DNA of 37,533 nt from an uncultured Anaerolineaceae bacterium (GTDB taxonomy: Bacteria; Chloroflexota; Limnocylindria; Limnocylindrales; CSP1-4). Positions 18,371-21,576 of the stretch are shown in pieces. Below the pieces are notes generated by a model. That model made no database searches and was not told the origin of the DNA. It saw only the letters and a list, made by a program, of their open reading frames with translations. The stretch is taken from NCBI GenBank assembly GCA_964451745.1, contig CAYVJP010000002.1, positions 1-37,533 on the forward strand. The letters run 5' to 3'. The first letter of the stretch is position 1; each line of letters opens with the position of its first letter. The translations under genes were made by a program, and so were the position numbers.

Positions 18371-19567
18371 TCAGGTCTGGTGCACCCCGCGATGGAGTCG
18401 GGCGCCGGAGAGCGGCAGGCAACAGGCGACGAACACGACGGACATGGCGGCCAGCAACCAGAGGCTCGCACCGAACCCGCCGCTGGCATCGCGGACCGCG
18501 CCGAGGACGAACGGGCCCAAGGACGAGAGGATGTACCCGCCGAAGAGCATCATCGCTGCAACGGCGCCCACCTGTGACGGTTCGTCCGCCACGTCGAGCG
18601 GCAGGGTCAGCACGAGCGGGAAGATCGCCCCGAGGGCGAGTCCCAGCAGCACCACCCAGGCCACGGTCAGCGTCGGGGCCAGGTTGATCCCGAGGAAGGC
18701 GACGGTCCCGGCCACCGCTGCCAGGAGCAGCTGGGAGCGCCGGCTGCCGAGCCGGTCCGCGACGAGCGGGACGCCCAGGGTCGTGATGAGCCCGACGGCG
18801 TTGAAGATCCCGATGAGGATCCCGGTCTCGGCCGGCGACCACCCGCGCTCCACGAGGGCGTTGGGCAACCACGCCACGACCCCGTAGAACAGCAGCGACT
18901 GGAGGCCGAACACCACCACGAGCAGCCAGGCGGTGCGGCTGCCCCACGGCAGGCGCACGGCGCGCGCCTCGACGGGTCGGTCGTGCCCGTCTCGTCGGAC
19001 CAGCAGGAGCCACGCGACGAGTGGGCCGAACGACGCCAGTGAGACGATCGCCAAGGCGCGCTGCCAGTCACCATCGATCGCCAGGGGTACGGCGATGACC
19101 GCGCTGATGGCCGATCCGGCGACGATCCCGCCGGCGTAGGCGCCGGTCCCCATGGCGCGGTGCGACGGCATGCGTTGCGACACGACCATCGACGGCACCG
19201 CGCCCGCGATCCCGATGCCCACCCCGATCCCGAAGGTCGCGAGGAGCAGGAGCTCCACCGACGGCACCGTCGCCCGGATCAGGCCGAAGCCACCGATCAG
19301 GGCCAGGCACGACGCGAAGGCCAGCCGCGGGCCGAGCCGTGCCGCCACGCGCGGTCCGACGGGCGCGAAGATCCCCATGCACAACACGGGGATCGTCGTG
19401 ATCAGCCCGGCAACGCTCGCGGGGATCCCCAGGTCCTCCCGGATGAAGGGGAGCAACGGGCCGATCGCGAGGAGTTGCGGGCGCAGGGCGATGGAGGCGA
19501 GGAACAGACCGGCGACGACCGTCAGCGGGACGGTCCTCGCCGCCTGGGTGGCTGGGCCGGACACCAA
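18371..19567 (-). CDS. MFS transporter (CynX/NimT-like, 12 TM)
   Basis: ORF 18371..19567 (TTG at 19567 or GTG at 19564). Typical MFS loop GPRVAARLGPR and repeated 6+6 hydrophobic segments. Starts 27 nt after the rhodanese stop. Confidence 0.85.
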   Translation of the reverse strand: MVSGPATQAARTVPLTVVAGLFLASIALRPQLLAIGPLLPFIREDLGIPASVAGLITTIPVLCMGIFAPVGPRVAARLGPRLAFASCLALIGGFGLIRATVPSVELLLLATFGIGVGIGIAGAVPSMVVSQRMPSHRAMGTGAYAGGIVAGSAISAVIAVPLAIDGDWQRALAIVSLASFGPLVAWLLLVRRDGHDRPVEARAVRLPWGSRTAWLLVVVFGLQSLLFYGVVAWLPNALVERGWSPAETGILIGIFNAVGLITTLGVPLVADRLGSRRSQLLLAAVAGTVAFLGINLAPTLTVAWVVLLGLALGAIFPLVLTLPLDVADEPSQVGAVAAMMLFGGYILSSLGPFVLGAVRDASGGFGASLWLLAAMSVVFVACCLPLSGARLHRGVHQT

Positions 19568-19593: not shown

Positions 19594-20916
19594 TCAGGCG
19601 ACCGCCTCGTCCTCCAGGACCGGATCGAGCGGCTCGCCGATCTCGATCGGGTTGTTGATCGGGTCCTGGCTCCACTCGAACCAGCCACCGTCGTAGACGG
19701 CGATCCGCGGCCAGTCCTGCAGGAAGGCGTAGAACCAGGTCTCGCTGGCCCGCCACCCGGTCCCGCAGTAGAACGCGACCCATTTGTCGGCGGTGATGCC
19801 CGCGTCGGCCCAGTTCGCCGCGATCTCCGGGTACGCCCGCATCGTGTTGTCCACGTTGCGGTAGTGCTGCATGTGGTAGGCATCGGTCCCGCAGTTGCCC
19901 CACACGTCACCCTTGATCCGTCCGGCCGGCCCGATGTAGTTGTAGCCACTCACGTTGCCGATGTGCTCGCGCCACGTCCGCACGCTCACCAGTGCCGCAC
20001 CGTCCGGGTCGGCGATGATCTCCTTGGCCTCCTCGATGTCCACGATCACCTCTGGGCGCAGCGGGATCGGCACCCCGAACGATTCGACCGGTACGGGCTC
20101 GCGCAGCACCGTCTCCACGGGATGGCCCGCGCGGACCCACCAGTCGTAACCCCCATCGAGGAGTCGGACGTCATCGACGCCCGCGTAGCGCAGGATCATC
20201 AGCGCCCGGGTCGCGGCGATCTGGCCGGCGCGCCGACCAGGCCACTTCTCGTTGGCGTCGCCCTCCGTGTCCCGGCCGTACAGGACGACCGTCGTGTCGG
20301 CGGTGATCCCCAGGTTGCGGATCGCCGCATCCAGGACATCGGGGGCGCGTCGATTCCAGTCGGCGGGATCCTCGAGCCAGTTCGTGTCGAGATAGAGCGC
20401 CCCCGGGATGTGGTTCTCCGCGTACTCCTCCGGAACCCCGAAGTTGACGTGGAAGAGGAGGAACCTGCCGGTCGGGGCCGCCTCGGGTCGCTCGCCCGCG
20501 AGCACCTGCTCCAGCCACTCGACGTGCACGAGATGCTCATGCTTCGCGAGCTTGTCCACGGGCAGGCTGGCGTCCGCGGCCCACGCCGGGAACCCGCCGT
20601 CGAGCACGGCGACGTCGGTCAGGCCGCGAGCTCGAAGGACGTCGGCCACGCGCGTGGCGTCGTCGACGCCGTTGCCATAGACGACCGCGCGTCGCCCCTC
20701 GGTCAGTCCCTTCTCGGTGAGGATCCGCTGGACTTCGGGACCGTCCACGCTGTCGAGCCACTCGACCGGGAACGAGACGGCGCCGGGAACGTGCCCGCCG
20801 CGTGGATCGTCGCCCTGACGCCATCCGTTGTAGGCGCGGAGCGGTCGGACATCGACCACCGCCTGGTGCGGGTCGTCGAGTCGGTCGCGAAGGGAATCGG
20901 TGGTGATGGAGGTCAT
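19594..20916 (-). CDS. Multi-domain rhodanese (thiosulfate/3-mercaptopyruvate-type sulfurtransferase)
   Basis: ATG at 20916 preceded by GAAGGA (20929-20924). Three rhodanese-like repeats; only the last has an active-site loop FYCGTGWRAS. Repeated HIPGA/HVPGA motifs. Confidence 0.85.
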   Translation of the reverse strand: MTSITTDSLRDRLDDPHQAVVDVRPLRAYNGWRQGDDPRGGHVPGAVSFPVEWLDSVDGPEVQRILTEKGLTEGRRAVVYGNGVDDATRVADVLRARGLTDVAVLDGGFPAWAADASLPVDKLAKHEHLVHVEWLEQVLAGERPEAAPTGRFLLFHVNFGVPEEYAENHIPGALYLDTNWLEDPADWNRRAPDVLDAAIRNLGITADTTVVLYGRDTEGDANEKWPGRRAGQIAATRALMILRYAGVDDVRLLDGGYDWWVRAGHPVETVLREPVPVESFGVPIPLRPEVIVDIEEAKEIIADPDGAALVSVRTWREHIGNVSGYNYIGPAGRIKGDVWGNCGTDAYHMQHYRNVDNTMRAYPEIAANWADAGITADKWVAFYCGTGWRASETWFYAFLQDWPRIAVYDGGWFEWSQDPINNPIEIGEPLDPVLEDEAVA

Positions 20917-20947
20917 GCGGTGTTCCTTCGGTACGTGGGCGAACGGC

Positions 20948-20975
20948 AAACAAAAAACCCCTGCCAGGCAGGGGT
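20948..20975 (-). terminator. Strong intrinsic terminator on the minus strand, inside the leader of the rhodanese gene
   Basis: Minus strand reads ACCCCTGC-CTG-GCAGGGGT followed by TTTTTTGTTT. Located 32 nt upstream of the rhodanese ATG, with no upstream minus-strand protein gene nearby to terminate. Confidence 0.6.
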
Positions 20976-21017
20976 GTCGGGGTGAGAGCTGGCGTACGGG
21001 TCACACGGGTCGCACGC

Positions 21018-21092
21018 CTAGGTACACCACCTGCCCTGCTCGGCAGCGGAGTGACACATACAGCGACACATGGGGGGCGTGACGGGATCCAT
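21018..21092 (-). CDS. Candidate 24-codon Cys-rich leader peptide (MDPVTPPMCRCMCHSAAEQGRWCT)
   Basis: Minus strand reads ATG GAT CCC GTC ACG CCC CCC ATG TGT CGC TGT ATG TGT CAC TCC GCT GCC GAG CAG GGC AGG TGG TGT ACC TAG. Possible promoter is TTGTGG (21130-21125)-N17-CACAAT (21107-21102). No SD. Sits between that promoter and the terminator. Confidence 0.4.
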   Translation of the reverse strand: MDPVTPPMCRCMCHSAAEQGRWCT

Positions 21093-21246
21093 CGAGGCCG
21101 GATTGTGACACCGTCCCGAGCTCACCACAAGCCCCTGATTCGCAACCTTCGGGAATCCGCGGTCCCACATCGTGCGCTTCAGGCGCCATCCCGCCTTGAC
21201 AGGGTGTCGCACGCTGGCACCGAGCGATCGCGACGGAGGACGGACC

Positions 21247-21576
21247 ATGGCCAGCCCAGAGAGCGTCGACGTGCCCAGCCGCTGGGCACTCGCGACGGCC
21301 CTGTCGCCCGTCGTGCTCTGGGTCGTCCTCCTGCTGATGGCTCCAGGATTCACCGACCCGTTGTATGCGAATCCGCCTGGGATCCTGGGGCTGCCCGCCG
21401 GACTGGTCATGGTGGGGCTGGCCCTCGTACTGGCGGTCAGCGGGGTCGTCGTCGTCTGGCGCTCGGCGTCGTCCGTGGTGCAGGCACGGGCGATCGGCCT
21501 CCTGACCATCCCGGCGCTCCTGCTCATCGGCCTGGGTCCCTGGATCGTGGGCACCCTCGGGGACCTGTCCGTCTAG
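21247..21576 (+). CDS. Small integral membrane protein (3 TM), unknown function
   Basis: In-frame ATG at 21247 with GGAGGA at 21235-21240; TTGACA at 21196-21201. Hydrophobic segments LSPVVLWVVLLLMAP, GLVMVGLALVLAVSGVVVV, LLTIPALLLIGLGPWIV. Confidence 0.6.
   Translation: MASPESVDVPSRWALATALSPVVLWVVLLLMAPGFTDPLYANPPGILGLPAGLVMVGLALVLAVSGVVVVWRSASSVVQARAIGLLTIPALLLIGLGPWIVGTLGDLSV

Follow-up and report, generated by a model that had tools for sequence, protein, structure and literature searches.

The DNA studied here, called the window in its full length of 37,533 nucleotides (nt), comes from an uncultured Anaerolineaceae bacterium of the phylum Chloroflexota (contig CAYVJP010000002.1). On its minus strand lies a gene for a rhodanese-family sulfurtransferase (gene 1), followed by a gene for an MFS transporter (gene 2) and preceded by a leader region that contains a promoter, a short upstream open reading frame (uORF) rich in Cys codons and an intrinsic terminator (Table 1). 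A first-pass annotation of this DNA had proposed that translation of the uORF decides between an antiterminator and the terminator ahead of the two genes. This candidate cysteine attenuator is the subject of the present analysis.

The basic parts named in that annotation were found at the locus. The promoter TTGTGG-N17-CACAAT is present and ends 9 nt before the ATG of the uORF, and the Cys-rich uORF of 24 codons, with three Cys within five codons and TGT throughout, lies behind it. A pattern scan recovered the perfect terminator ahead of the rhodanese gene, ACCCCUGC-CUG-GCAGGGGU followed by UUUUUGUUU, and the distance from the U-tract to the ATG of gene 1 (20916) is 31 nt. Since these 31 nt include the GAAGGA Shine-Dalgarno sequence of gene 1, they leave no room for a separate promoter. 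The neighbouring ORF at 21247-21576 sits on the opposite strand and is divergent, so that the terminator ends no upstream gene, as had been stated, and the sulfurtransferase gene can be transcribed only through the terminator.

Table 1. Features of the leader and the adjacent genes, with positions in the window
Feature	Position	Strand	Basis	Remarks
-35 box TTGTGG	21125..21130	-	sequence	TTGNNN at the same place in 46/48 orthologous leaders, spacer 17-18 nt
-10 box CACAAT	21102..21107	-		TGT before it (extended -10-like); spacer to -35 box 17 nt
Leader ORF (uORF), 24 codons + TAG, MDPVTPPMCRCMCHSAAEQGRWCT*	21018..21092	-		four Cys, all TGT; three within five codons
Putative Cys sensor cluster TGT-CGC-TGT-ATG-TGT	21054..21068	-		Cys9, Cys11, Cys13 (Q-10, Q-8, Q-6)
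Segment 1, CUGCC	21042..21046	-		local pairing with GGCAG 21035-21031
Antiterminator base, 5' strand GCAGGG	21034..21039	-		third base of codon 18 + CAG + GG of GGC
Antiterminator middle, 5' strand GG-U-GGUG	21025..21031	-		overlaps Trp and final Cys codons; pairs with CACCCC in the constrained minimum-free-energy (MFE) fold
Hairpin B, predicted antiterminator apex, GGCGUGCG-loop-CGUACGCC	20991..21018	-		first base is the last G of the TAG stop
Antiterminator middle, 3' strand CACCCC	20979..20984	-	constrained folding	
Terminator 5' arm ACCCCUGC	20968..20975	-		CCCUGC (20973-20968) doubles as 3' strand of the antiterminator base
Terminator 3' arm GCAGGGGU	20957..20964	-		loop CUG 20965-20967
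U-tract UUUUUGUUU	20948..20956	-	pattern scan	T-rich tail after the stem in 48/48 leaders
Shine-Dalgarno GAAGGA of gene 1	20924..20929	-	sequence	
Gene 1 (putatively regulated), three-domain rhodanese-family sulfurtransferase, EanB/YnjE type	19594..20916	-	Pfam, PDB matches	440 aa
Gene 2 (putatively regulated), MFS transporter, CynX/NimT type	18371..19567	-	adjacent same-strand gene call	starts 26 nt after gene 1
Divergent 109-aa ORF	21247-21576	+		strong Shine-Dalgarno, hydrophobic segments

The product of gene 1 had been labelled a rhodanese. The family assignment stands, with three Pfam Rhodanese domains (PF00581), but the protein is more exactly a sulfurtransferase of the EanB/YnjE type. 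It aligns end to end with EanB of Chlorobium limicola (PDB 6H98, 6KTV; E = 1e-118), while YnjE of E. coli comes next (2e-88). EanB is an O2-independent (anaerobic) ergothioneine synthase, in which roles are assigned to Tyr353, Cys412 (catalytic) and Arg417 (PMC10903977), and the motifs holding these residues, SGYNYI and FYCGTGWR, are kept in gene 1 when the two proteins are compared. Gene 1 thus resembles EanB and YnjE as a full-length homologue with three rhodanese domains, and it keeps the key motifs of EanB, whereas it differs from them in its linkage to an MFS transporter gene, in its predicted regulation by cysteine and in its surroundings: a search of about 8 kb in three neighbourhoods, with the rest of the genomes not searched, found no EanA/EgtD-type histidine methyltransferase (Methyltransf_33). 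Because no such gene lies nearby, a role of gene 1 as ergothioneine synthase is unproven. Gene 2 matches Pfam MFS_1, and its TIGR00896 score of 223 bits is below the cutoff.

The divergent 109-aa ORF has no match in Pfam or NCBIfam and has its 330-nt intergenic region in common with the leader promoter. No tRNA genes were found in the window, nor was a second copy of the uORF tail motif. The whole window gave no match to Rfam 15 at the gathering score, and at a permissive threshold the best hit in the leader region (E = 0.043) was on the opposite strand and covered the terminator only.

Conservation of the leader, its reading frame and its Cys codons

We collected 80 species-level genomic loci with an orthologue of gene 1, most of which come from Chloroflexota metagenome-assembled genomes (MAGs) labelled Candidatus Limnocylindrales or uncultured Chloroflexia, together with some Gaiellales/Thermoleophilia. 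The protein itself is highly conserved. In most of these loci (L numbers below), the stretch about 100-180 nt upstream of the orthologue encodes a peptide with the C-terminus ...C-x-C-x3-4-A-x-Q-G-R-W-C-x-stop. A covariance model (R1) was built from 48 leaders; counts of genome leaders refer to these 48, and the realigned set holds 52. The signals in the window, judged alone, are only modestly above chance, and we hold the feature to be real because of its conservation: besides the window, the model finds the element in 52 of the 80 GTDB species genomes with 70-135 bits, one copy per locus and always directly upstream of the orthologue. A scan of metagenomes with a pattern of tail plus terminator yielded at least 120 loci. 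Among the matches listed, all loci with at least 100 nt downstream carry the same gene 38-118 nt after the terminator, except L167, which we rejected as a chance match inside an unrelated repeat; the genuine matches open to this check numbered 119. The conservation of Cys-rich uORFs upstream of orthologous rhodanese genes, which the first-pass annotation had named as a check, is thus found in genomes and metagenomes alike. The leader is a dedicated cis-element of the sulfurtransferase gene and, among the matches listed, is conserved in well over a hundred uncultured soil Chloroflexota.

The spacing at the 5' end is strict. A -10 hexamer NANNNT (CAGAAT, GACAAT or CACAAT) stands 7-12 nt before the ATG in all 48 leaders, and 8-9 nt before it in 38 of them. 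None of the 48 has a Shine-Dalgarno sequence for the uORF, for which there is no room between the -10 box and the ATG. From this spacing, a leaderless or nearly leaderless mRNA is predicted, with transcription starting 0-3 nt before the uORF ATG.

For the frame test, the ATG was chosen solely by its distance from the -10 box. It turned out to be in frame with the conserved tail in 46 of 48 genome leaders and in 90 of 92 unique metagenome leaders among the matches listed (136 of 140 together). The distances from ATG to tail differ by multiples of three only, being 57, 60, 63 or 66 nt to the last Cys codon and 45, 48, 51 or 54 nt to CAG, and the N-terminal part of the uORF varies freely in sequence and length. 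In two aberrant leaders (L018:2823-2966 and L044:2783-2929) the ATG is out of frame with the tail; the ORF of L044 has a CCCC run and reads through the terminator. Another one (L031:397-525) keeps promoter and terminator while the uORF body is absent. Sequencing indels could account for these three, or they could be decayed or alternative variants.

Cys makes up 15.5% of the uORF codons (46 leaders), against about 0.5% in the regulated ORF. Counted back from the conserved Q codon, Cys stands at Q-8 in 39 of 46 leaders, with synonymous variation (TGT 23, TGC 16), and at Q-6 in 44 of 46 (TGT in 41), and the codon between the two is unconstrained. Generally, the Cys codons are spaced as C-x-C(-x-C), 6-10 codons before the Q codon, and consecutive runs occur in rare variants only, such as L044. 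The choice of codon is strongly biased: in 48 loci the uORFs use TGT and TGC 122 and 46 times, while the regulated ORFs use them 0 and 100 times (Fisher p = 7e-38), and the metagenome leaders among the matches listed have 262 TGT and 67 TGC. This bias suggests that wobble-read codons tune the sensor, a codon effect which is testable.

Another pattern is seen in the tail. GCAGGG is invariant, including its first G, which is the third position of a codon that specifies different amino acids in different leaders (E/M/K/V/A/R/G/P), and the GGC codon that is partly contained in it is almost never swapped for another Gly codon. The last Cys codon, two before the stop (21024-21026 on the minus strand of the window), is TGT in all 46 in-frame genome leaders. 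The conserved C-terminal residues of the uORF thus appear to reflect a constraint on the RNA and not on the peptide, and the comparison of leaders argues for a translated sensor rather than a conserved peptide.

The link to the transporter gene is looser. Of the 80 loci, 18 have a CynX/NimT-like MFS gene linked to the sulfurtransferase gene; in 13 of these (L002, L004, L006-L008, L014, L016, L017, L019, L025, L029, L035, L042) the MFS gene lies upstream of the leader, on the same strand. Conservation extends to the linkage but not to the attenuated unit, which includes the MFS gene only in some genomes, among them that of the window.

Other upstream elements were observed at the same gene. In L020, L040, L047 and L050, a second, unrelated type of leader lies about 250 nt upstream of the orthologue, with a different uORF containing Cys codons (e.g. 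MIAHRCSRDMCPCWRPRH...) and then a different terminator (GCCGCAGUC...GGCUGCGGC plus U-tract), which suggests that Cys-uORF attenuation of this gene arose twice. Of 163 leaders, 60 have a box C[CG]GTCA[CA] at a distance of 10-70 nt behind the terminator, where about 9 are expected from shuffles; the box lies between terminator and Shine-Dalgarno sequence (e.g. L010, L018, L048, L070), also occurs in the second leader type and is not clear in the window (20917-20947). Among orthologues without the leader, L049, L058, L063 and L065 have a conserved upstream palindrome GTTGAC...GTCAAC instead, and those of Actinomycetota (L054, L057, L059, L061, L066, L069, L071, L073-L077, L079) have a TCGCTTTACTTTGTA-like box. 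Both the palindrome and the TCGCTTTACTTTGTA-like box look like candidate protein operators.

Alternative helices and the position of the ribosome

The terminator, with its GC-rich stem of 8 bp, loop of 3 nt and U-tract, has a folding energy of -14.4 kcal/mol in the window (z = -2.55). It is present in all leaders examined, both in the set of 48 and in that of 52. Its helix is 99.2% paired in the 52 leaders, where the only changes are from U-A to U-G, and CCCCUG is invariant.

Just after the stop codon of the uORF lies a conserved stem-loop that was absent from the first-pass annotation. This hairpin B (GGCGUGCG/CGCACGCC; -12.0 kcal/mol, z = -3.1) is present in 48 of 48 leaders. Compensatory changes occur at 5 of its 8 pairs, for example GCGCGGG/CCCGCGC and GCGCUGAC/GUCGGCGC, and the observed covariation was matched by none of 500 shuffles. 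The covariation that had been named as a test of the proposal was therefore found in hairpin B, while the base of the antiterminator is invariant. RNAalifold on MAFFT alignments recovered the terminator, a weak local hairpin and the antiterminator base, and hairpin B, which was misaligned there, was realigned with the covariance model.

The antiterminator base is formed by GCAGGG in the uORF tail and CCCUGC in the 5' arm of the terminator, with 99.4% of cells complementary, and RNAalifold closes the region by exactly this helix. In constrained folds it closes a long interrupted hairpin, in which GG-U-GGUG pairs with CACCCC in the middle and hairpin B forms the apex. The whole structure of about 72 nt has a predicted energy of -32.0 kcal/mol in the window, compared with -14.4 for the terminator. 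The earlier proposal that the uORF tail pairs with the left arm of the terminator (the 2:3 antiterminator) thus stands, but its register does not: instead of GGCAGGUGG:CCCCUGCC, the conserved pairing is GCAGGG:CCCUGC, 4 nt further 5'. The register with GGCAGGUGG (21035-21027) is also possible, in the window sequence specifically. Besides, variant uORF tails come with matching partners, such as GGCGGUGU:ACACCGCC in L078 and GAGAGGU:ACCUCUC in L137.

For the middle of the antiterminator, a fixed register anchored on GCAGGG and the terminator arm was tried and rejected, as it gave no clean column-wise pairing, and duplexes computed per sequence were just about 1.4 kcal/mol better than shuffles. 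In these models the middle is best described as G-rich:C-rich pairing of variable geometry.

The local hairpin CUGCC/GGCAG (21046-21042/21035-21031; -9.3 kcal/mol) had been proposed as the 1:2 pairing of the classical arrangement. It is present and conserved, with 92% pairing across the 52 leaders and 6 cells changed on both sides, but it is too weak to block antitermination in the predicted state without a ribosome. An alternative local hairpin, CUGC/GCAG, had less support and was dropped. The MFE of the whole leader is unremarkable (z = -0.38), and by folding the signal appears to reside in the alternative helices and not in overall stability.

Folding with and without ribosome masks had been put forward as a further check. 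In our calculations on 46 leaders the mask was the footprint alone, from -15 to +10 around the A site, as masking everything 5' of the ribosome was judged too generous. For a transcript ending before the 3' arm of the terminator, the antiterminator base has a probability above 0.5 in 40-41 of 46 leaders when the ribosome stalls at the Cys cluster and in 6 of 46 when it is at the stop. In the full-length transcript, the terminator exceeds 0.5 in 14 of 46 leaders with a stall at the first Cys and in 36 of 46 with the ribosome at the stop. For the window, the antiterminator has a probability of 0.99 with the stalled ribosome, and the terminator 0.98 with the ribosome at the stop codon. When the 3' part of the uORF was shuffled with its composition preserved, capture of the terminator 5' arm fell from 0.66 to 0.07 and the terminator rose from 0.31 to 0.87. 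In the predictions, the terminator forms with the ribosome at the stop, and the uORF tail captures the 5' arm on a Cys stall, as had been expected.

The geometry agrees with such a switch. When the Q-6 Cys codon occupies the A site, GCAGGG begins 17 nt downstream, past the leading edge of the ribosome, whose footprint includes part of CUGCC. When the stop codon is in the A site, both the G-rich tail and the 5' arm of hairpin B lie under the ribosome.

A probable leader-peptide attenuator and its alternatives

We estimate at about 0.78 the probability that the leader is a ribosome-mediated (leader-peptide) transcription attenuator which reads the supply of charged tRNA-Cys. The first proposal for this locus, in which translation of the Cys-uORF decides between antiterminator and terminator before the sulfurtransferase-MFS operon, is supported by conservation, frame, Cys codons and folding. 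Sequence and frame are conserved, the codon bias and the covariation of hairpin B are observed, and the alternative pairings are complementary; from these we infer how transcription start, uORF translation, stalling, termination efficiency and the response to cysteine would fit together. Transcription from the conserved promoter would begin 0-3 nt before the uORF AUG, and a ribosome would translate the 24 codons as RNA polymerase proceeds. When Cys-tRNA is plentiful, the ribosome would reach the stop, cover the GG-U-GGUG tail and melt hairpin B, so that no long antiterminator could form; the 8-bp terminator and U-tract would then form and end transcription 31 nt ahead of the ATG of the sulfurtransferase gene. 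With little Cys-tRNA available, the ribosome would stall at the C-x-C(-x-C) cluster, mostly on the wobble-read and otherwise avoided TGT, its leading edge still at least 5 nt away from the invariant GCAGGG. This sequence, together with the G-rich tail and hairpin B, would fold with the C-rich spacer and CCCUGC into the antiterminator, and polymerase would read through into the sulfurtransferase and MFS genes. Hairpin B might also be a pause hairpin that synchronises polymerase and ribosome.

Several points weigh against this reading. The helix GCAGGG:CCCUGC at the antiterminator base is invariant on both sides and hence without covariation, and the middle of the antiterminator is without a single clean register. 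When the ribosome stalls at the last Cys of the cluster, the terminator remains the preferred structure in 26 of 46 leaders; as equilibrium folding does not always favour the antiterminator, the model relies on kinetic control. About half of the leaders are predicted to form the antiterminator when no ribosome is present, so that the classical 1:2 "super-attenuation" branch is weak. The near-invariant TGT two codons before the stop is at odds with the simple model, since a ribosome halted on it would sit over the antiterminator strand; this codon may reflect a constraint on the RNA (GGUGU) or serve as a second checkpoint rather than as a simple sensor codon. The evidence is computational throughout and the hosts are uncultured MAGs, in whose lineage leaderless initiation and the efficiency of intrinsic terminators are predicted only. 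It is also not obviously logical that a shortage of cysteine should induce an EanB-like enzyme that consumes sulfur, for which sulfur salvage is one possible reason.

Other explanations were weighed against the same data. A translation-coupled attenuator could sense general translation stress (ribosome-targeting compounds, oxidative stress, slow elongation) and not cysteine supply, which we consider improbable. Ribosome delay of any kind upstream of GCAGGG would have the same structural effect, the state without a ribosome is predicted to read through, and stress-sensing uORF attenuators exist, such as that of whiB7 (cited in 10.1101/834739). In many leaders, the Cys cluster is also preceded by His runs; these are, however, limited to one clade, whereas Cys at Q-8 and Q-6 is all that the family as a whole conserves at the amino-acid level. 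The bias towards wobble-read codons concerns Cys codons specifically, and the regulated gene encodes a sulfur-transfer enzyme. The conserved Cys could instead belong to a Cys-rich micro-protein with a function of its own, such as a partner of the sulfurtransferase that binds metal or persulfide, with the terminator merely setting the ratio of peptide to enzyme and no sensing involved. Most of the roughly 140 leaders keep C-x-C and a C-terminal Q-G-R-W-C, the uORF is strictly linked to a sulfur-transfer enzyme, and a role for the small protein was left open in the mycobacterial study as well (10.1101/834739). We still find such a protein quite improbable. The conservation of the tail is explained by the RNA, given the invariant third base in a variable codon and the near absence of other Gly codons in place of GGC, and the tail is complementary to the terminator arm. 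The N-terminal half is free in length and sequence, TGT is rare and otherwise avoided in the same genomes, and in several loci (L015, L033, L038, L046) the stop codon shifts and adds unrelated residues.

The strong nucleotide-level conservation of GCAGGG, GGUGU and the terminator stem, together with the conserved and covarying hairpin B, might be expected of a riboswitch-like or protein-bound RNA that governs the terminator directly through a sulfur metabolite, the ORF being incidental. That other lineages seem to control this gene through DNA operators makes regulation by a factor plausible. Against it, frame and start codon are kept in 136 of 140 leaders, with all indels in threes, and the Cys codons are conserved with synonymous variation. 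Two hairpins aside, there is no elaborate conserved fold, and no Rfam family matches; we regard this explanation as very improbable.

Related systems and implications

Leader-peptide attenuation is classically known from the enterobacterial leaders trpL, hisL, leuL, thrL, pheL and ilvL, which respond to Trp, His, Leu, Thr, Phe and Ile/Val. The present leader shares with them a short ORF enriched in the sensed codons, an intrinsic terminator close ahead of the first structural gene, and an antiterminator which uses a terminator strand and would be blocked by a ribosome reaching the stop; hairpin B could pause like the 1:2 hairpin of trp. It differs in that it would sense cysteine, that its codons are spaced as C-x-C and do not form a run, that its 1:2 anti-antiterminator is weak, that it is apparently leaderless with a uORF lacking a Shine-Dalgarno sequence, that the host belongs to Chloroflexota, and that it would control a sulfurtransferase and a transporter and not a biosynthetic operon.

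Cysteine-responsive uORFs have been described elsewhere. The precedent of mycobacterial polycysteine ORFs, to which the first-pass annotation had appealed, is confirmed: leaderless small ORFs (sORFs) such as Ms5788A/Rv0815A respond to cysteine, and one controls the cysA2 sulfurtransferase operon (Canestrari et al. 2020, 10.1101/834739). They act on translation, as the Cys tract pairs with the Shine-Dalgarno sequence of the next gene and there is no terminator (10.1101/834739). Both systems have a Cys-codon uORF at the 5' end of a leaderless transcript (predicted here) and expected stalling on cysteine limitation. There are up to eight consecutive Cys in mycobacteria, whereas here the Cys codons are spaced and lie outside the switch helix, a canonical terminator stands between uORF and gene, and there is no sequence similarity. 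In our constrained folds, no pairing is seen between the region of the Cys cluster and that of GAAGGA.

A motif of the terminator type, uORFC-8-2, was predicted upstream of cysS in Rhodobacterales, with a Cys uORF, a stem and a U-run, and read-through dependent on Cys-tRNA was proposed for it (Brewer et al. 2021, PMC8632094). Like the present leader, it is a computationally predicted uORF with conserved Cys codons and an intrinsic terminator. It differs in its gene (cysS), in its host (Alphaproteobacteria) and in its tandem Cys at about positions 14-15, mostly UGC, inside the first stem, and by its description it is unrelated. Candidate Cys leader peptides with runs of Cys codons near the stop were also reported for cys/cbs operons of Actinobacteria (Seliverstov et al. 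2005, PMC1262725), where neither a terminator nor alternative hairpins were found and the mode of action was left open (PMC1262725). Those leaders and the present one are both short Cys ORFs upstream of sulfur-metabolism genes, and all parts of an attenuator are present here. We found no earlier description of this leader element in the literature. The claim of a new terminator-based Cys attenuator therefore holds for the element itself but not for the concept, which had already been predicted at cysS (PMC8632094). By comparison, the leader appears to represent a new family that works by a known mechanism, one not known before from this phylum or at this gene.

For cysteine, only translational attenuators, those of mycobacteria, had been tested, and a single terminator-type motif had been predicted, at cysS of Rhodobacterales. 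The present leader would be a complete and well-conserved Cys transcription attenuator, adding to the textbook set of amino acids, and would extend the taxonomic range to Chloroflexota, namely Limnocylindria-like soil lineages in which RNA-based regulation is almost unexplored. It also offers a functional clue, since a shortage of cysteine appears to turn on an EanB/YnjE-type sulfurtransferase (and the adjacent MFS transporter in the window) in uncultured, genetically inaccessible organisms. One speculative reading, which we consider unlikely on present evidence, is that the EanB-like enzyme and the MFS transporter form a sulfur-starvation response, not making ergothioneine but salvaging sulfur from an imported thio-compound for cysteine synthesis. 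Ergothioneine or another thio-heterocycle, thiosulfate and polysulfide would be the candidate sources. If it were true, it would give a physiological role to a large set of EanB/YnjE-like enzymes of unknown function in abundant soil Chloroflexota, and the leader would be a ready-made reporter for testing it.

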